NCBI GenBank assembly: GCA_951406725.2
Contig: OX597817.1
Coordinates: 36,394,001-36,458,000 of the forward strand
From: Octopus vulgaris
Lineage: Eukaryota
Direction: 5' to 3'
Length of the DNA: 64,000 bases
The notes under the pieces were generated by a model. That model saw only the letters and a list, made by a program, of their open reading frames with translations, was not told where the DNA came from and made no database searches. Positions 12,451 to 49,883 of this stretch are shown piece after piece; within the stretch, counting starts at the first letter, position 1; each line of letters opens with the position of its first letter. The translations under genes were made by a program, and so were the position numbers.

Positions 12451-12701
12451 TTATTTCTTTATTGCCCACAAGGGGCACAGAGGGGACAAACAAAGGCAGA
12501 CAGACAAAGGGATTAAGTCGATTACATCGATCCCCCGTGCGTAACTGGTACTTAATTTATCGACCCCGAAAGGATGAAAGGCAAAGTCGACCTCGGCGGA
12601 ATTTGAACTCAGAACGTAGCGGCAAACGAAATACCTCTAAGCATTTCGCCCGGCGTGCTAACGTTTCTGCCAGCTCCCACCTTCGATTCTGCCATCCCGC
12701 C
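12451..12701 (-). mobile_element. tRNA-derived SINE family B with 17-bp TSD
   Basis: Reverse complement of the 26802-27033 copy; perfect flanking direct repeat gttaagatatatatttc at 12434-12450 and 12702-12718. Confidence 0.9.
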
Positions 12702-22628: not shown

Positions 22629-24348
22629 TATATACATATATATGTATACATACTCACACAGAAACACACATACACACACACATATATACATACGGAACGA
22701 GCACATTTATTTTTTGTGCGTATATATCATTGAATAGCTTCGTAATGACCGCTGCTTCGGAGCGAAGGGGATCGATACATATAACCGGAATTTTAAATAC
22801 GATATACACGAAAGAGGGAAACTTTTATGTTCAACCACTTTCATACACCTCCTGAATCTGTATTTTATATATGTAGAAAATACTGCAGGTAAATATTGAC
22901 AACGATTCGTCTGCAGTATATTAAACTGAAACTCTTGTTTGTGCAGACACTGTTGAAGAACTTCAAAGAGTGAATTTTATTTGTACCAATAAAAACGTTA
23001 CAGGAGCTTGTCTGAAAAACGAATGTAAATGATATTTCTTGACACCTAGAAGTAAGATTTATAAACTCTTAACTGTTAATCCGAATGACTGTGAAACTGG
23101 ACGTATTCTGTGTTTTGACACTACCTGTTAGTGTTGACGTCCGCATCCATCTTTGTGTATCGGAGGCGCATATTTTAGTTCTGCCAGATGAATGCTACAC
23201 AGCCAACAAAAGATGCTATATTTATGATAAATATTATGCTAACTTTGTCATATGTCCATTGCTCATAACGAGAAACTGGTTTTCCTTACTCTCAGTCTGA
23301 GAGAGTTACTAGTGACATTATAAGTACTTGGATGTTGGCGATGTAATTGGAGAGTGGCAACAATGTGGAAGGAAGGCGAGTGCATTTCACAACTACATAT
23401 ACTGATTTTACACTACTCGCATTTATACAACTCTTTCGAAAAGGTTCTAGGGTTCTGTATTAATAATTAGTCTTAATTCGTCTACTTTTCGAGCTAATTC
23501 ATTCCCCCTTTATCTTCTATATATCCATGTTCAGAATGTTCCTCATTAACGTTTTCTTTTCTTTTTCTATACTAAGTATTTTTTTTATAAATCCAGTTTT
23601 CATGTTGTAATTATAAATGCTTTGAAAGTGTATTAACTAAAACTGACTTTATCATACATTCCATTTTCTATAACGACATGGCATAGTCTGATTTTCTTCC
23701 TCTGATAATACTCATATATGCAAATATAAAGTATCAGGTTGAAAAATCCCAAAGTCAGCATATTTATATTTGATTGAAACTTATTCTGAACTTGTAGCTC
23801 CAATACCATAACATAGCGCATGCTGTGTCAACAAGAACAATACGCAACACAATATAACTTACATAAACAACCATTTCCTTTGATATTCAAGGGATAATAT
23901 CTTTTAGTTCTGAATTTTCTAATATAGTTTCAAGGGAAAGTAATTACCTTAGAAGAAAACCATTTGACTTAATCTGTGAACCAGACTGGAAGTTATAAAG
24001 AAATTTGAGGTCCTTGCTATGGGAAGCGAATATTTGCAGAGAGTATGACTTTATAAAGCAAAAAAATTATTGACTGAGGATAAGGGCAAACGGCCATTGA
24101 AATATAATTCTGGTGCAATCTCTAAACCAGCTTCTATTCGTGTGAGAGCTGCGAAATATAGAAATATTGAGGACGGCAATGCGAAATTTTTATCCACTAA
24201 CGATCGGGTGGTAGTTAAGCTTTGATGTTGAAACTCAGCTTTTGTTGCCTATGTAGTTAGGTCCTACAAATTTGAGTAGAGGCAAATGGCGCATGTGTCA
24301 CTTCATAATAACAATTATCATTGGCTGTGTGGTAAGTAGCTTGCTTAC

Positions 24349-26200
24349 TTCCGGTTAACCAGAATGCAACACTAGTTGGTCTGGACTGTTACAGTGAGAA
24401 AATGTGAGTTTCGGGTCCGTGAATAGAAAAAAAGAACAAAAAGAAAAATTGTCAAGTATGGAACGCTATAGTGAGCAAAATACTGGGTTCTCATCACCGT
24501 AACGGTGATTTGAGAATTTTTGCTTGAAAATTCTTTTTGTAAATTCTGGTGGGCGTATCTCGCCAGAAAAATAAGAATAAGCCCATTTGGATTACCTTTT
24601 TGGAGTATTATACAAAGGATTCCCTGTCTATGCTATTTGTGAGGTTTTTCTTTTACTTTTCCCTTCTATTTTTTCTTTCTTTCTAAATTTTGGTTCCTTC
24701 TTTTCATTACTTTAATTTCAGTTTCCTCCCCTCCTCTTTTATTTTGTTTTATTTTTATTCGGTTTAATTTTTTGGCAGACTGTCTTTTGAACTACTTTTG
24801 GACTGTTTTTTGACATGGCAGAGAAGGAACTTAAAAAGAAAAACACTGTCTTAGAGTGGGAAATTAACCCGCCTAAGCAGAGGTTAAAAGATATGGAGGA
24901 GAAGACGATGGTACTTAGAACTTATTCTAAAGTTCTTAATTCCATCACCGTCTTCCCAAAACAAGTCATAAAAAATGAACTTAAAGAATATTTGTCCTCT
25001 TTAAAATATATATCCCGTGGTGTCAAACATGCAACCGTATGGTTGCTGTTTGACAACGGGGAAAAGGCTCGCCAGTTTGCGAGTCAGCCTTTGGAAGGCA
25101 AGGAAATTCTGTTCCTTCCGTCATATTGTGGAAGAAAAGTACCCCCAGGCACCGAAGCAGATTGGATTCAAGATACCATCCGACAGGGACTGGGGGATGG
25201 CGGGCCCAGGCTCTTAAACGTAAGGGTATTGCCGGCGGTCGATTGGGAAGGGTCAAAAGCGATTTTGACCCTGTGGACCCCATCGGCCGCAACAGATCTG
25301 GTTTTTCCAGATTTCTTGAAAATGGCTGGCTGCAGGTATCCGGTGATACTTGAGGAACGTCTCTCCAAGTGTCACTTGTGCCTGCAGCCAGGCCACATTA
25401 AAAGGGACTGCCCCCAGGACCATGGTAAGATCCTGGAACAGTCACTAGATGCCACCTCCCCTACCCGGTCAAAGGGAGAGGTGGATGTGGTCGAGGAGGC
25501 TTCAGCCTCCTCAACTCAAAAGGATTAAAAAGGAAGAAGGCGGGCGACAATAGTTGCCCGCCGAAGGAACCTAAGGTTTCGGGGGCGGGGGAGGGTCTCC
25601 GGACAAAGCGGAAGATCTCCCTCCCGAAGCCAGAAAGAAAAGAAAAAAAAGAAGGAAGAAAGACGGGTCATCTCAGCGGGAAGATGATGTGCCGTCTGCA
25701 TGTCCCGAAGTTGTGCCACCCACGGTGGAAGAAACCACCCCACTCTTAAAGATGATCAATTATCTTTTTCTATAAGGGCGGGGAGGTGGAAAAATAGTAG
25801 AAGAACATAAAGAGACAGTAGATATGCCCTTCACACGGGATCCCGAATGGCCTCCGCAGATAGCGATGGATATATCGAAGAGTAGGAGGTGAAAGACCCT
25901 CGTTATAGGGTTTGAAACCTCATCTTATTGTATTATTTGTAGTGGTCTATAACCTCAATTGTGTGTTTAAAAAAAACATGTTAAGTAAGAGGTTTTAGTG
26001 CCTCCTTCTTGTAAGAGGTTTGAAACCTCATGTGGATTTTTAAAAACGAAAATATGTTTTCGAGAAAAATCCAATCGGTGGGTGTTGGGTTTCGTCTCTC
26101 ATCTATTCATTCTATTTCATTTTCATTCATTAATATATTTGTCCAGCCCGCAAAGCTACACACTCTTTGTACTGTCTATGATGACAAATTTTATGAAATA
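24349..26200 (+). mobile_element. ORF1-only non-LTR retroelement of L1/Tx1 type (HAL1-like)
   Basis: 15-bp TSD aagtagcttgcttac (24334-24348) / aagtagtttgcttac (26201-26215); AATAAA at the 3' junction; a single gag-like ORF; no endonuclease or RT remnant seen. Confidence 0.8.
24815..25528 (+). CDS. L1/Tx1-type ORF1 protein with CCHC zinc knuckle (C-terminus probably frameshifted)
   Basis: 237-aa non-repetitive ORF containing CHLCLQPGHIKRDC (CX2CX4HX4C); a basic low-complexity tail continues in another frame to about 25749. Confidence 0.8.
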   Translation: MAEKELKKKNTVLEWEINPPKQRLKDMEEKTMVLRTYSKVLNSITVFPKQVIKNELKEYLSSLKYISRGVKHATVWLLFDNGEKARQFASQPLEGKEILFLPSYCGRKVPPGTEADWIQDTIRQGLGDGGPRLLNVRVLPAVDWEGSKAILTLWTPSAATDLVFPDFLKMAGCRYPVILEERLSKCHLCLQPGHIKRDCPQDHGKILEQSLDATSPTRSKGEVDVVEEASASSTQKD

Positions 26201-26801
26201 AAGTAGTTTGCTTACCAACCACATGGTTCTGGGTTCATTCCCACTGCGTGGCACCTTGGGCAAGTGTCTTCTACTATAGCTCCGGGTCGAGCAAAGCTCT
26301 GTGAATTGATTTGGTAGACAGAAACTGAAAGAATCCCATCGTATATATATATATGTATTATATGTATATGTGTATGTGTGTGTGTGTGTTTATGTGTTTG
26401 TGTTTGCCCCCCAAACATCGCTTGACAACCGATGTTGGTATGTTTACGTCTCTGTAACTTAGCGGTTCGTTAAAAAGAGAACGATTGAATAAGTACTAAG
26501 CTTACAAATAATAAGTTTGGGGTCTCGACTAAAGGCGATGTTCCAGCATGGTCACAGTCAAATGAATGAAACAAGTAAAAGAGTAGCACTGGTAAAAAAT
26601 AGCTACCTGGTTTTTTTTATAGTTTTGTTATTCTTAATTATGATTAGGTACATTGTACATTTTTGTAATATTGTGTACGTTTACAATAATTACTCATGCA
26701 CATGTTTGATAATCGGCTGAAACTGCCCGTAGGTTTGACAAGGTTTCTCTAAATTATATTTCTCTGGCAGAGCTATATATATTTCTCTGGCAGAGCTATA
26801 T

Positions 26802-27033
26802 AAGGCGGCGAGCTGGCAGAAACGTTAGCACGCCGGGCGAAATGCGTAGCCGTATTTCGTCTGCCGTTACGTTCTGAGTTCAAATTCCGCCGAATTCGAC
26901 TTTGCCTTTCATCCTTTCGGGGTCGATAAATTAAGTACCAGTTACGCACTGGGGTTGATGTAATCGACTTAATCCGTTTGTCTGTCCTTGTTTGTCCCCT
27001 CTGTGTTTAGCCCCTTGTGGGTAGTAAAGAAAT
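26802..27033 (+). mobile_element. SINE family B
   Basis: aaggcggcgagctggcagaaacgttagc head, B-box gttcaaattcc; flanked by repeats of tatatttctctggcag. Confidence 0.92.
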
Positions 27034-27686
27034 ATATATTTCTCTGGCAGGAATAATTTGTGCTAAAAAAAACACATGTAATTCGTTGTTTGTCTTAAAC
27101 CACTGCAGTACGATATTGAAGTACAACTCATGGTTCAGGTTCTAGACATGTTGTCAACTGAATACTACCATTGGATCAGAAGTGTAGACAAAATGGAAGC
27201 AAATAATCTGCCATGACACTCTTCAGAATATTAAATAAGAAAGTGAAAGTATCAAATATATCAATAAATACTTACTGAAACGCCCCTTACATTCACAGGG
27301 TAAACATGCAACCTCCCAACCAAGATATTGATACTAGATAATCTGCATCGTACATGTCGAAGTAGTTTTCCTTGCACACACACTCACACACACGCCCGCA
27401 CGCACGCACACACTCACACACACACACACACACACGCACAGACACACACCCCCACACACACGCACACGCACAGAGAAAGGTATGCAAGTTACTTCAGAAG
27501 ATCAAAGTTATGTAATGGGAGATATTGTGGATACTCACACAACTTGATATGAACCTTCGAAAGTAATTTGACATGGAATCCACAATATGGATTAAAGAAT
27601 TTAATATTACAGAATACTCTTGTTAAAAATATTGGGCTAGAAATATGTTAGCTTTTATCATCAGTTTATTTATTTATCTTGGTTTT

Positions 27687-38844: not shown

Positions 38845-40098
38845 ACAGGTCATCCCATGAGTTATGTCCGATCTTACCTTTTTTAAAATTGAATGAAATT
38901 TAATAGTATTTTAGAATGTCTAATGGAATTAAAAATGCTTTTATGCTTCTGTGTACATTTAAACGAATTAAATATTATTTTACAGAATAATAGAATTAAA
39001 ATTTCTTTGATTAAAACCCTTTCTAGCATGGCGGTATCCAAAGAGCATTTGAGGCACATAATGATTTATGAGTACAAAACAGAAAGCGACTCGAAAAATA
39101 CACTCAGTTTATTGGAAAGAATGCTTGAATGAAAGAATTTGCAGATGGTTTGCAAAATTCAGAAGTGGAGATTTCGACCTTGAAGATGAAGATCGAAGAG
39201 GACGTCCAGTTAAGTTTGATGATAAGCTCCTCGAGGCATTACTTGAAGAAAATCCTGCATTATCAGTTAAAGAATTGGCAAGAATGCTTAGTTCATCGTC
39301 ATCTTCAACAACTTGGAAAGATTCCTAAACTTGGAAAATAGGTGCCTCATGAATTGTCTGAAAGCAACCGCAAATCCTGAGTTGACATATGTTCTTCTCT
39401 CCATTCTGGCGAACTCATTTTACCCTTTTTGGATAGATTTGTGACTGGTAACGAAAAATGGATCTTCTATCGAAATGTTAAATGTCGTAAACAGTGGCTT
39501 GGTGAAAGGGAAAAAGCTCAACCACAACCGAGAAGGGTACTTCATGGGAAAAAGGTTATTCTCTCTATCTGGTGAGATTGCAAAGGAGTAATTCACTTTG
39601 AATTGTTACCACCTAATGCAACAATCAATGCTCAAGTCTACTGTCAGCAATTAGAGCGTTTGAACCAAGCTTTGAAGGAAAAATGACCCGCTTTAGTGAA
39701 TCGAAAAGGAGTGATGTTTCATCAGGACAATGCCCGACCCCACTCTGCAAAGATCATATCACAGAAGGTCGAAGAGCTTGGTTGGGAAAAAATTCGTCAT
39801 CCACCTTATTCTCCCGACCTTGCTCCTTCAGACTACCATTTGTTTCGTAGTTTGCAGAATAATGTGGTTAGACATAACTTTCGCAAGCCAAGAGGAGGTC
39901 GAAACTGACATTTCAGAGTTCTTCGCTTTGAAACCAAAAGAGTTTTACATTGATGGGATTAAAAAGCTTATAAATAGATTGAAGGAAGTCATAGATAATC
40001 AGGGAAAGTACATTGATGATTAAATTTGAATTAAATATAACATTTGATCACTTATTTTCTTTATTCAAAATTCGGACAGAACTTATGGGATGACCTAA
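38845..40098 (+). mobile_element. Near full-length mariner (DD34D) transposon, inactive
   Basis: TIRs aggtcatcccatgagttatgtccga / tcggacagaacttatgggatgacct, TA flanks, 1254 bp. Confidence 0.96.
39028..40023 (+). pseudogene. Mariner transposase pseudogene
   Basis: MAVSKEHLRH, WFAKFRSGDFDLEDEDRRGRP, VTGNEKW, HQDNARPH, YSPDLAPSDYHLF; several stops and frameshifts. Confidence 0.95.
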
Positions 40099-40354
40099 TA
40101 ACTGTTACTGTCAGTCATTTTATTGAGAGAGGATTAAGTCGTTACCATCGGATCTAGGACTCGACAGATATTTTTTTTCTTTATTAACTCCAGAGTGTAA
40201 ATGCAAATTTGAACGGCAACGTTTACATTTGAGGGTTTTAATATAGAATATAAATCCTGAGCAAGTGGATATCAATTTTCCCAACGTTCTAACGACTCTA
40301 CCCGATGAGCTGCTTTCATAATGGTGACAATGATTCAAGACTTTGAAATAATCA

Positions 40355-40891
40355 TTCTTCTTCTTCTTCTTCTTCTTCTTCCCCCTCCTCTTCCCCCTCC
40401 TCTTCCTCCTCTTCCCCCTCCTCTTCCTCCTCCTCGTTCTCCTCTTCTCCCTCCTCTTCCTCCTCGTTCTCCTCTTCTCCCTCCTCGTTCTCCTCTTCCT
40501 CCTCCTCGTCCTCCTCTTCCCCCTCCTCTTCCTCCTCCTCGTTCTCCTCTTCTCCCTCCCCTTCCTCCTCGTCCGCCTCGTCCCCCTTCCCGTATTCTCC
40601 TCCTCCCCGTCCCCCTTCCCGTCGTCTCCTCCTCCTCGTTCTCCTCTTCTCCCTCCTCTTCCTCCTCGTCCTCCTCGTCCCCCTTCCCGTCGTCTCCTCC
40701 TCCTCATCCCCCTTCCCGTCGTCTCCTCCTCCTCGTCCTCCTTCCCGTCGTCTCCTCCTCCGTCTCCGCCTCCCCTCCACTCCTCCTTTTTTGTCTTGCT
40801 ATTATTGTTATTGTTGCTCTTTTTCTTCTTCTTCTTCTTCTTCTTCTTCTTCTTCTTCTTCTTCTTCTTCTTCTTCTTCTTCTTCTTCTTT
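40355..40891. repeat. Polypyrimidine (CTT/CCT) low-complexity tract with cryptic 21-42-bp higher-order units
   Basis: Repeating cctcctcgttctcctcttctc and cccttcccgtcgtctcct units; (CTT)n at both ends. Confidence 0.9.
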
Positions 40892-41071
40892 CTTATTATT
40901 TATGGTTTCCTTTCATTGTAACCTTATTTCAGCTGTCTTTTTACCGGCCACTTTTGTTTTGCTATGAATGCTAAAATTATCGCCACATTTATTCCATTTT
41001 AGATGGAGAGTGCTTTCCGTAGTTATAATTTTTGTTGCTGTTGTTATCATTGTTGTTGTTGTTGTTGTTGT

Positions 41072-43922
41072 TTTGATTCTCGTTTTCTATTTGCGGTTGT
41101 TCTTTGCTTGAAAGCAGGCAATAACAAGTCACTAAAGGTTTCGAATAGTGCCTTCTGTGACTCAAAGAGACAATACTCTCCTTAGAATGCGAGCTGTATC
41201 CAACAATGCTGACTTCTGGATCACTTCGAACCTGACAGCAGCTCCAATATTCTTAACGTATTTTTCAAAGCTCTTGGAAACTGCTCCTAATGATCCAATT
41301 ACCACCGGTATCACCATTACTTACATCATGCCCAATAAATTCCCTATTTCGTCCCGCAGTGGCTGGTATTTCTCACTCTTATCTGTTTCCCTACATTTCA
41401 CCCTCGAATTGCCTGGTATTGCAGCATCTGTTATCTTTGCTTCTTTTTCAAGAGCGCTGCACACTAATGCCTCAGTGGTCCCTTTTAAGTCCCCTTTCTG
41501 CAGCTACTGCCATGTTCTATTCCAATCAATCTCATCTTTAATCTTCAAGTAATGACTGTCCATTTTCTTGTCCTGCCAAATTTTCTTCATCTGTTCTCTC
41601 TGATCTTTCTTAAATCGTTTTGAATCTACGCCATCGTTCACTTTTAAGGTTCCCTGTGTTTTTACTGCTTCAGTCATTTCTTCTTTACTCCCCTTGACAT
41701 ACCAAGCCAGGCTATTCTCCTCTTCCCTTACACAACCTTCACAACAAAATAATCCCCGCCCTCCTTCTTTCCTCTTTACATACAATCCTGACACATCACT
41801 CTTGGGGTGTAGTTCCTTGTTCATTTTCATTAGTTTACGTGTTCTCCAGTCTATCTCTTGTAATTCATTCTTCTTCCGAGATACCATTCCTACCCCATAT
41901 CTCATCAAGGCAAACTACCTCGTGTTCATTGCTTTAATCTATAATTTAGCTTCGACTGGAGCACAAGCCGAGTTCTCAAATACTCTTTCCTGTACACTTC
42001 TTTCATATTGTGTTCATTCATTTTATCTCTTTCAATGATACCCAGCTACTTATATCCTTCCTCTCCGACTTCCTTTGTAGTTTCGCCACTTCCCAGCTTG
42101 ATCCCATAGCTTTTACTGATTTTCCCCTTTTTTGAGAATCATCATACCGCATTTCTCGATCCCAAATTCCATGCCAATATCTTCGCTAATCATCTGCTCA
42201 GTTGCCATCAAACTCTCAAGTTCTTTCTCAGTACTTAGCAAATACCTCTAGGTCATCCATAAACCACAGAATCTTTGCATTCACCCTGCCTAGCAAGTAC
42301 CCCACACGCATCTTTCTTAAGATATTCAGGATATTGTGGGAGACCTTAAGCAGTTTAAGGCATTCAATCACCACAAGTCATATGCTTTCCTGTAGTTCAC
42401 CCATGTCATCGCCAAATTTTTGTGCCTCTTCTTGCAGTTAGCCAGGATAGTCTTATTGATTAGTAATTGAGCCTTCGTTTGTGTGCTCTTACGTCTACAT
42501 CTCTTTTCTTCCACTGGTAGTAGGTTGTTCTCATTAGGTACTTATAGATGTTGTCTGATACGATGCCCGTCATTAGTTTCCACATCAATGGTAAACAAAA
42601 TATTAGCCGGAAATTTCCAACCGCATTCCCTTTACTTGAGTCCTTCTGGCATAGTACCGTTCTTCCTTTTGTCATCAAGGCCGATATTTGGATGTCACTA
42701 TTTCGTCCAGCTGTCTCGCAATTCTCCTATGCAGGGCTCTCAAGTTTTAAAGCCAAAAGCCCTGAACCCCATCCGGGCTAGGCGCTTTCCAGTTAGAAAT
42801 TCTCTTGAACTGTTATCTAATCATCTCCTTGATTATTCACAAATCCTCCTGCTGATAATCTCCATTCTCCTCTTTGAGTGTCTTTAACCACTCTGCTTCA
42901 GTTTCGTGTTGTTTCTCCTGAGACCATATTTTTGCCCAGAATATTTTGCTTTCTTTAGCATCCAGCACGGCTTTTACACCATTTTCTTTCCCATCCAGTT
43001 CCTGATAGAGTCATTTCTGATTTTATTCGAAAAGTCTGTTTAATCTGTATTGCTCAATTCTCTGTTCATATCTCTTTAGTTTATGTGCTTTAGCTTTTAA
43101 CCTTGGGTTTTATTCCTCAATCACAACATTGATTCCCTTTCTCTTCACTCTATGCTTCCTCTCTAGCGCAACATATTTGTCTTGCTGAGCTTCATTTCCT
43201 TATATTTCCGTTCCGGAATATCAATATGCTTTCTGGTCTCGTTAATAGACTGCGTTATTCTCCTTTTTCACCATGGTTCTTTCAGGCTATGTTAACATTT
43301 ACCTTTGACTTTTAAACCTAACTTCTGTGCTATAAATATCAAGGTTGCATTTATCAGATTGTTGGTGCCTGTGATGTTGTCAGTCCTGATATCACCAGTG
43401 ATATCCTTTATCTTCCGACCCATGCATTAAGTTTCTTTCTGTCTACTTCTTTAAACCCCGTATAAAAGCTCTGTTCACCAGAGGTCCATATAACAATAAT
43501 TTCAAATAAAAATGGATATCTGTACCTCAGTTTTCTCATCGCTTTCCTGATCAATAACCTCAGCCTCATGCTCATTTTCTTTCTCCAACTCTACTGCCAT
43601 AGTGTCACTGTTCGCATCCTCTTCCTCATCATTCCGTTCACCGCTGATCTTACTATACCTAAGCACCAGTCTCTTAATGCTTTCTAGTTCAACTGGAGAT
43701 AACTATTCATTATTTCTGCTAGCTCTAGCTTGGTCACACAGATTTTGCTCACTTAATTCAAAAAGGCCCCTGTCGCTCCATGCCCTGTGCATACTTTTCC
43801 TAAATCTCCTTGCTGGTACTTCATTATTATTTCTCGGATTACCCAGAAAGTAGCACTCCAGTCTTCTTGCATGTATGCCACTGTCTCGTTCCAAGTCCTA
43901 CACGCTCTACATTTTTTGACAC
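41072..43922 (-). mobile_element. Nearly full-length, degenerate R4/Dong-clade LINE (RT plus restriction-like endonuclease)
   Basis: Minus-strand peptides EQNLCDQARA, NFRLIFCLPLMWKLMTGI, WFMDDL, LHPKSDVSGLYVKRKEGGRGL, VIPVVIGSLGAVSK and IQKSALLDTARILRRVL; abuts (TAA)n at the 5' side and (CAA)n at the 3' side. Confidence 0.88.

Positions 43923-43991
<69 letters not shown>
43923..43991. repeat. (TTA)n microsatellite
   Basis: Direct reading. Confidence 0.95.
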
Positions 43992-44378
43992 CATTGAGTG
44001 GGAGAGCAGTGCATGCTATCAAAGTGACAGTGAGGTAAAATATACGAAGCCCAGTATACCCATCATAATTACCCGTCTGATAAGGATACACCTAGCACAT
44101 GCATCACAACCATATGTGTGCGACCTGGTGGGGGCCCAGTTAGAATTTTTTTCAGGTTGAGTAGCCCATCCCACTCAATAGGTCCCTAAATAAGGGTTGT
44201 TTAAGGATGTTGAACGAAACACTCATGTTTCCAAAGGTGAATGATCCAAACTCCAAAGAATTCATTTCAGCACATGGCTATGATGCTCCCCCACTACTTC
44301 TGATCGTGATCAGAGATGCACATATCGTCAGCCACTAAGGGACATGCTGAAGTCCTTAAGGGTAAACAAATGACAAGT
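43992..44378 (-). mobile_element. Probable 3' UTR of a second R4/Dong-like family
   Basis: GC-richer non-coding block running on the minus strand directly into (TAA)n; recognised as a common octopus repeat from memory, not verified. Confidence 0.5.
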
Positions 44379-44389
44379 AATTTTTTTTT

Positions 44390-45560
44390 TTTGTTCCACA
44401 TTTTCCTGATTTCTATCTCTAAGTCCTTGTATTTAGCTACTTTGATTGAGATATTCGAACAGCTGTTACTGTCATGTCTATTAGAAAACAGGTATTTTGT
44501 CTATGGTTTTTTACAATAATATATGGACTATTGGCATTTATTTGTATGTTAGTATTGATGGTAAAGTCCCACGGAATAGTAACTGAATTACCATCTGTAA
44601 TTGGTTTCTAGTGGTATTCATACCGATTTTCGGATGCGGTATGTCATAAAGACAACAGATTTTCCAATGTAAGTACTTCTCTATTCAGTCATGTCAGGTT
44701 TTATACATGGTCATTGTGAGTTTAGAGCAGCCAGCCACAATGTGGTCGATGGTTTCAATAGTATTATCTCATAGTCCACAGTTTGGGTGAGCATCATTGT
44801 AGAGGATGTTTGCTCGGTAGTTTGTTGTGAGTAGTGATTAATCTGAGTCGCCATTATAAAAGCTCGAGTTTATGTTTTAGACCTGAAGAGTGCAACTACT
44901 GATGTGTTGTTTATGTATCTATAGCTGCTTCACTCGTTCGTTTGGGATACTGACAATGGAGAGGGTTCTCTTGTCATTTATCTATAAGCTTTCTAGGGCC
45001 TTCTTTCCTGTTCGCCGTGTTTTGCTGCTTCTGTTCGTATTGCAGCTTTGTCATTAAAATTTACACCTAACCTTACTTCTCTTTTATACTTCTATTCCTC
45101 TTTAATGGCAGAATGTAACTTGTTCCCTTCGTTTTGATTTACTAACTGTGTCATCCAGTCGTATTTATTCTGGATGTATGAATTAAGTCCTATTGCATTG
45201 GTCTTGTACGATAATTCTAGATGGATAAGACCTCTCCAACCTATTTTCGGGAAACGTAGATTCTATGAATATCAGTCTTTAAATAATGCATCTTGTTTGC
45301 CCTCATAAGTGTTCTTGTTTTCGCCTTCATTCGTTGGAGTTCATTTAAACCACTGGGACAGCTAGTGAATTAATGGTTTGAATTTTATTCTGGGAATTTA
45401 GTTCCATTTTTATAATCAAACATAACCTTGTATAATACTTTTTGCATGATTTATTCCCTCATAACACTGTGTTGGATCGCATTCTCCTTATTTGTTATCG
45501 GGTACTTATATATTCCATCTTGGTCTCATTATTCAACAATATTGTTGTCATTTAGCGCAA
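44390..45560 (-). mobile_element. Older, 5'-truncated R4/Dong-like LINE relic
   Basis: Minus-strand remnants HLKTDIHRIYV, CGL*DNTIETIDHIVAGC, WDFTINT, ANSPYII and KYKDLEIEIRKMW. Confidence 0.8.
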
Positions 45561-45922
45561 TGGGAGATGTAGAAACGAGTTATTATTGCTGTCGTTGTTA
45601 TGGTTGTTGTTGATGTTGTTTGATTTGTTGTTGTTGTTGTTCTTGCTGCTGCTGCTGCTGTTGTCCTTGTCGGTGTTGATCTTGTTCTTGTTATTCATTA
45701 TGAAAAGCTGATTCTGCATGAGAAGCTACTCGAGGTTTCTCGTTCCTGGTTCTGACGTAGATTCAATTTTGAAAATATACTGTTATTCCACTCCACCGAA
45801 CAACGGCTTTCAGTATTTTTTCACTTAATTGCAGTTCATAGCAGTGTGAAACCACAATCTCCTCTCCCTCCCCCTTCTCCCTCTCTCCTCTCTACCCCTC
45901 TCTATCTCTATTTGTCTCGCAT

Positions 45923-46030
<108 letters not shown>

Positions 46031-49470: not shown

Positions 49471-49883
49471 GCGTGGCTGTGTGGTAAGTATCTTGTTTAC
49501 CAACCACATGGTTCCGGATTCAGTCCCACTGCGTGGCACCTTGGGCAAGTGTCTTCTACTATAGCCTCGGGCCGACCAAAGCCTTGTGAGTGGATTTGGT
49601 AGACGGAAACTGAAAGACGCCTGTCGTATATATGTATATATATATATGTGTGTGTGTGCATGTTTGTGTGTCTGTGTTTGTCCCTCTAGCATTGCTTGAC
49701 AACCGATGCTGGTGTGTTTATGTCCCCGTTACTTAGCGGTTCGGCAAAAGGGACCGATAGAATAAGTACTGGGCTTACAAAAGAATAAGTCCCGGGGTCG
49801 AGTTGCTCGATTAAAGGCGGTGCTCCAGCATGGCCGCAGTCAAATGACTGAAACAAGTAAAAGAGAGTAAAAGAGACTAAAGA
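49471..49883 (+). mobile_element. Full-length SINE family A
   Basis: tRNA-like head gcgtggctgtgtggtaag through to the aacaagtaaaagagag tail. Confidence 0.94.

Follow-up and report, generated by a model that had tools for sequence, protein, structure and literature searches.

A SINE in the genome of Octopus vulgaris is interrupted by an insert with one open reading frame, which raises the question of what this insert is, how it reached its position and which enzyme copies it. The window analysed here is a 64,000-nt stretch of contig OX597817.1. Its first-pass annotation had described a SINE split by a 1852-bp insert between duplicates matching at 14 of 15 positions, and this description holds: the insert spans 24349-26200 (+) within a SINE copy and is flanked by AAGTAGCTTGCTTAC (24334-24348) and AAGTAGTTTGCTTAC (26201-26215), which are 14/15 identical. 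We consider it highly likely that this is an ORF1-only insert at a fixed SINE site, copied by a helper of the L1/Tx1 group that has the same site and tail. The features of the locus, with the evidence for each, are the following.

24322..24333, +: remnant of the host SINE head, A-box-like TGGCTGTGTGG at 24322-24332 (sequence; motif at the same offset in 21/30 empty SINEs)
24334..24348, +: 5′ target duplicate AAGTAGCTTGCTTAC (sequence)
24349..24814, +: 5′ UTR, 466 nt, opening with (C)TTCCGG, first T5 run 168 nt in (sequence)
24815..25528, +: ORF1, 237 aa in the window copy, with two predicted RRMs and one CCHC knuckle (Pfam; RRMs from the sister-family ORF1 model and fold search)
25367..25417, +: CCHC zinc knuckle, aa 185-201 (Pfam)
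25529..25863, +: frameshifted rest of ORF1, basic low-complexity portion (sibling comparison)
25864..26200, +: 3′ part and 3′ UTR, start approximate (sequence)
26173..26186, +: predicted 3′ hairpin TGTC-TATGAT-GACA (tail comparison)
26201..26215, +: 3′ target duplicate AAGTAGTTTGCTTAC (sequence)
26216..26585, +: remaining host SINE, B-box-like GGTTCATTCCC at 26232-26242 (sequence)

Most of the internal structure had also been read correctly at first pass. The ATG lies at 24815, behind the claimed 466-bp 5′ UTR, the AATAAA said to end the 3′ UTR is found at 26197-26202, where it overlaps the 3′ target duplicate, and the insert contains no endonuclease or RT match and no transposase match by Pfam. 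The single CCHC ORF was likewise confirmed, its zf-CCHC match (E 1e-4) exceeding the Pfam cut-off; open ORF1s of sister families measure ~410 aa. Alignment with four siblings shows two gaps in the window copy, one of 24 nt (after 25138) and one of 169 nt (after 25863), besides the loss of several single bases, so both the 1.85 kb and the 237 aa are products of decay. The window insert is a decayed member of a multi-copy family of ~2.05 kb; the copies do share a uniform unit (anchor-to-end length 1992-2073 nt in 24/27 measurable siblings), at that length and not at the 1.85 kb first proposed. We take the (C)TTCCGG at the start of the 5′ UTR to be an ETS-like motif, and 5′ UTR starts presumably resemble ETS and NRF1 motifs. 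Contigs from four runs, one of which was merely guessed to be RNA, cover the window family, and the unique-flank contigs end at 24346. Repeat finding across the whole window was dominated by microsatellites, and positions 40001-46000, where GC skew and AT skew are both strongly negative (to -0.43 and -0.37), are probably a pyrimidine-rich repeat tract.

The empty site is represented in the window by intact, uninterrupted SINE copies at 49480 (+) and 17669 (-). The insertion site falls between the A-box-like and B-box-like motifs of the SINE, so the insert does part the two box-like motifs, much as had been claimed; among 30 empty copies the commonest spelling of the A-box-like motif occurs in 21 and that of the B-box-like motif in 20. 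With Rfam, the SINE head matched no tRNA at E<=10; the earlier label "tRNA head" rests on these motifs. OK, OR1 and OR2 are names of octopus SINEs, and our literature search found no paper for their consensus.

Is the position of the insert an accident? We searched the 2.8-Gb genome (G000) with the insert, scoring the best 40 of 2356 candidates and obtaining 30 loci, window copy excluded, that are 88-94% identical to the window insert. The SINE head lies directly upstream in 28/30, its place being taken in L003 and L015 by another element's tail and a duplicated motif, and the 3′ end runs into SINE body in all 27 loci that have one (3 lack a 3′ end). A second query, the last 145 nt, gave 30 fetched loci from the best 40 of 1057 candidates, with the site motif in 30/30 and the SINE body in 28/30. 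Either query contained at most 2 nt of flank. Because the site motif is present at 60/60 family loci, counted over two sets of 30 that overlap in part, the site is fixed beyond chance, and random flanks, which would have told against the first-pass reading, are not what the copies have. The expected recurrence of one SINE position was thus found, whereas the expected 15-bp duplication turned out to vary from 7 to 17 bp.

The family also lacks a polymerase of its own. All fetched loci together gave 136 matches to the ORF1 lineage at 113 places, of which 111 could be assessed. In agreement with the claim of an ORF1-only element, ORF2 followed this ORF1 before the terminus at 0/111 assessable places, in searches that took the best 40-150 of thousands of candidates and that a rare ORF1+ORF2 element or off-target copies may escape. 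The terminus lies 611-1397 nt past the knuckle in 106/111 places, and none was seen in 5/111. Two rows with an apparent ORF2 before the terminus proved to be the helper's own knuckle (one locus, twice) and were removed by a length filter. The family is a multi-copy ORF1 unit without ORF2 and shows the TSD and 5′ truncation that target-primed reverse transcription leaves behind, and in both respects is HAL1-like. We also observed four loci (L066, L072, L082, L084) where a window-family ORF follows a family-C-type 5′ end, an apparent exchange of 5′ UTRs between families, and one unit of ~100 nt at the site (L206) in which a family-B 5′ end is fused to the tail, a bipartite non-coding derivative.

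An autonomous partner with the same 3′ end had been proposed as a check, and a 5.44-kb element that encodes both ORF1 and ORF2, found in arrays L093 and L102, answers to it, with the same site in 12/12 and a 41-nt tail in common. Its domains are Exo_endo_phos, RVT_1 and zf-RVT, with zf-CCHC in ORF1, and its best PDB sequence match is human L1 ORF2p (E 8.5e-67). With an APE endonuclease, an RT and a C-terminal zinc motif, the helper belongs to the L1/Tx1 group. It shows two Tx1-clade traits, target specificity (12/12) and a type I ORF1, and is probably a Tx1 within that group; its protein and structure-cluster matches included no named Tx1 reference, and the ESM Atlas placed ORF2 among unnamed APE-RT clusters. 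The helper endonuclease had >70 matches at 97-100%, and 12/12 full-length copies, picked because their ORF2 is open, are bordered by the SINE head on the upstream side and by SINE body downstream. L202, an older relative (76%), uses the same SINE site, and in the other seven of eight more divergent relatives no junction was detected. The 3′ ends of L196 and L200, whose ORF2s are 60-69% relatives, share another flank, CCTTTCGG..AGACCTTTTAAGGTCTAG, which suggests a sister lineage with another target.

Window insert and helper align only over their last 41 nt (83%, E 2e-4, a score reached by 0/1000 shuffles). A predicted hairpin, TGYC-N5/6-GRCA, is common to both tails; helper and sister families read TGCC-N5-GGCA and the window family has the compensated TGTC..GACA. 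In this stem of only 4 pairs, 93% of cells are paired and 2/4 pairs show two-sided changes, which amount to 3 cells, 2 of them from the window's family, and a slide of -3 gives 0.111 vs 0.114; the pair count modestly supports the hairpin. Separately, the tail of a second SINE family, at 26802-27034 (+) and near 12505 (-) of the window, matches the helper 3′ UTR over 27/28 nt. This family ends in TAAAGAAAT, as do the divergent ORF2 relatives L196, L197 and L200, and with an L1/Tx1-type LINE it likely forms a SINE/LINE pair.

The ORF1 protein is predicted to consist of two RRMs and a CCHC knuckle. An AlphaFold model of the sister-family ORF1 core, made with 10 sequences, reached a pLDDT of 82.8, and the modelled core matched the folds of the tandem-RRM proteins Raver1, hnRNP A1 and HuR (E 5e-5 to 1e-3, TM ~0.3). 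Pfam found zf-CCHC in 6/10 ORF1s and Transposase_22 in 0 of the 10. The cores of families A (window), B, C, E, F, G and H are 57-74% identical to one another, with E, F and G known from one or two copies each and the terminus of H not found. The ORF1-only families, at least seven, form one clade on a long branch (support 100/100, tree row H_L105 being only 23% filled) that includes an Octopus sinensis protein. The helper ORF1 can be aligned to the tandem-RRM ORF1s, is 22-28% identical to those of the ORF1-only families and falls outside their clade. So does that of type D, a unit of ~1.5 kb without ORF2 whose ORF1 is 40% identical to the helper's, which likely marks a second, separate ORF1-only origin. 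The dN/dS comparison called for at first pass gave 0.05-0.33 over 36 pairs of natural copies, with dS near saturation in many, and ORF1 is under purifying selection. A word-based protein search found one relative; a profile search found 800 proteins, and the named relatives (5/10 looked up) come from Octopus and Argonauta. Five ORF1 relatives (P0001, P0026, P0028, P0029, P0036) are listed as host genes in octopod databases, and one relative carries the host-gene label "EPM2A-interacting 1-like". A ZCCHC3-type ORF1, an ESM Atlas lead (0.90) among other CCHC clusters, was dropped, as Pfam gave no support for ZCCHC3 domains; our literature search found no paper tying ZCCHC3 to Tx1.

The inserts might instead be passengers of another, unseen autonomous LINE with a close ORF1, as deletion products in the manner of HAL1, the 5.44-kb element being merely co-sited. 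The distance of the helper ORF1 and its place outside the clade fit this explanation, as does the fact that the genome searches covered the best-scoring candidates. We regard it as unlikely, in view of the absence of ORF2 behind this ORF1 at every assessable place and of what occupies the site. In a sample of 50 filled junctions chosen by site alone, the first 30 of 265 and the first 20 of 211 listed for the two site variants, each classified from its last 1.5 kb, 37 have ORF1-only-type tails, 12 have autonomous-type tails, all of the helper's kind, and 1 is unclassified; moreover, the young ORF1-only families B and C occur in the same arrays, and at the same GCTAAC target variant, as the young helper. 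We infer that helper ORF2p may mobilise the ORF1-only elements in trans. The first-pass model of an ORF1-only element with a borrowed ORF2 is supported, the SINE being a putative safe harbour. Judged by sequence comparison, the ORF1-only elements are not simple deletion products of the helper found, because their ORF1s are so distant, form a separate clade and accompany a sequence of which the last 41 nt alone align. As the window family predates the youngest helper, an earlier relative probably served as its own helper.

Neighbouring units in a stack are separated by the motif; one array contains at least six ORF1-only units and then a helper, and at L039 a window-family unit lies upstream of a truncated helper-type tail. 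At three loci (L091, L092, L097) family C is followed by B inside one SINE; the B units of these pairs, at 98.8-99.7%, are no closer to one another than to solo B copies. Such a repeated C+B pair, together with top-scoring copies that are near-uniform in length and have the same junctions, would be expected if one insertion had been amplified later as a composite of SINE and insert, by hitchhiking or duplication, so that the specificity is only apparent. Nine 5′-truncated copies oppose this, joining the site at differing points with 7, 8, 10, 10, 11, 12, 15, 15 and 17 target-matching bases (L095, a reference artefact, was left out). Flanks have also diverged more than inserts, with identities of 94.7% vs 99.2% for the helper (n=12) and 89.3% vs 94.8% for the window family (n=23 of 27, four with rearranged flanks omitted). 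Unrelated families and the helper share the site, and runs of at least four T, which terminate Pol III, number 25 in the insert, the first 168 nt in, and would halt transcription of a composite. Amplification of a composite is therefore very improbable, and the truncated copies and more diverged flanks argue for independent insertion. Least probable of all, in our judgement, is that a site-specific DNA-level element or recombination placed the units. Dada DNA transposons do target small-RNA genes, according to the parts of two studies available to us (PMC3706591, PMC8869645), and a long poly(A) is absent here, but there is no transposase match in the insert, 5′ truncations occur with intact 3′ ends, and the tail is shared with an RT-encoding element.

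The duplicates likewise speak for independent insertion. Of 40 copies, 5 carry C-to-T at target position 11 in both duplicates, 5 in the 5′ duplicate alone, 1 in the 3′ duplicate alone and 29 in neither (p=0.002); the variant is common to both duplicates beyond chance. Three young copies over a GCTTA target, namely two helpers in GCTTAC sites (L224, L225) and L094, have a 5′ junction that reads (T)GCTAAC or TCTAAC. Because of these junctions and the 5′-only variants, part of the apparent 15-bp duplication likely comes with the element RNA.

The two site variants are about equally abundant, with 28,609 GCTTAC and 28,847 GCTAAC empty sites by exact pattern; the corresponding filled 3′ junctions number 265 and 211 (~0.8% occupancy). 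Old inserts favor GCTTAC and young ones GCTAAC: the window family sits almost wholly at GCTTAC, and 12/12 young helpers sit at GCTAAC (p=0.0005 vs 50%). L124 and L125 indicate that GCTTAC sites remain in use. Tentatively, and with slightly more doubt than confidence, we suggest that a long-lived guild may exist at one SINE site, in which an ORF1-only lineage would outlast its helpers, keeping its own RNA-coat protein under selection and a ~40-nt tail for successive helper enzymes, outnumbering the helper by ~3:1, having followed it from GCTTAC to GCTAAC, and joining full-length 5′ ends via a few RNA-borne target-like bases.

We propose the following cycle. Pol II would transcribe the element from its own 5′ UTR, its own two-RRM/CCHC ORF1p would coat the RNA in cis, and helper ORF2p would recognise the 3′ hairpin tail in trans. 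L1 endonuclease prefers a TT/A nick, and the helper endonuclease would nick the bottom strand at TT/A within 5′-GCTACTT/ACCAC-3′, where the A's of the tail could prime target-primed reverse transcription. A variable second nick would yield the 7-17 bp duplication, and, with SINE head and duplication surviving upstream, the site could be reused and mixed tandem arrays could grow.

Each ingredient of this system is known singly. HAL1 (half-L1), HeT-A and Ag-Sponge are described, in the portions consulted, as non-autonomous LINEs that encode only ORF1p and have several independent origins (PMC5753468, PMC5786205), and the octopus element resembles them in this. Type I ORF1p combines RRM and CCHC, the mammalian HAL1/L1 type being Transposase_22 (PMC5203782, in part). 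The octopus ORF1 is of type I, its element is site-specific, its ORF1 is far from that of its helper, and its tail is a short hairpin with AATAAA in place of a long poly(A). It works like HAL1, yet lies outside the strict mammalian sense, which is excluded by the lack of Transposase_22, the tandem RRM fold and the lack of an internal-deletion relation to the helper. Tx1 families are target-specific in the sections seen of PMC4494074, which place Tx1L in Tx1D and Tx1-Mar in Mariner-N4_AMi and also cover Keno, Kibi and Koshi; the helper is likewise an APE-RT element specific for another repeat, its type I ORF1 fits a Tx1 placement, and the related lineages L196 and L200 seem to have another target. 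The targets named there are DNA transposons, LTR elements, snRNA, 5S rRNA, satellites and microsatellites, and no SINE is among them. The same source describes SINEU and Tx1-Mar, where non-autonomous passengers share the target and tandem insertions sandwich the TSD, hitchhiking being rejected through truncated copies; that passenger is a non-coding SINE in a DNA transposon, whereas the octopus passengers encode ORF1p and target a SINE. Stringent-type LINE/SINE 3′ stem-loops (PMC3747384, in part) likewise pair a helper and a passenger through a short conserved hairpin with compensatory change, although the octopus hairpin has only 4 pairs and its recognition is proposed here. The octopus repeat papers, as far as accessible, count L1-Tx1 without target or ORF1-only data (PMC13282606, PMC8967140); extracts of PMC4758252, PMC8869645, PMC9004415 and PMC3747384 completed the comparison. 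In the literature searched, beyond which subscription papers or Repbase may hold entries, we found no SINE-targeting L1/Tx1 element, no ORF1-only Tx1 passenger and no such guild.

As a reason for HAL1-type elements to keep ORF1, PMC5786205 suggests co-multimerisation with the helper protein. In the octopus system the ORF1s of passenger and helper agree at only about a quarter of their positions, young intact copies of both exist and both use one defined site, which makes action in cis versus co-assembly directly testable. With this finding a SINE joins the targets of site-specific LINEs of the APE type, as a niche that counts at least 57,000 exact empty sites and is <1% filled, and the finding also explains some of the genes mis-annotated as "CCHC" or "uncharacterized" in octopod annotations.
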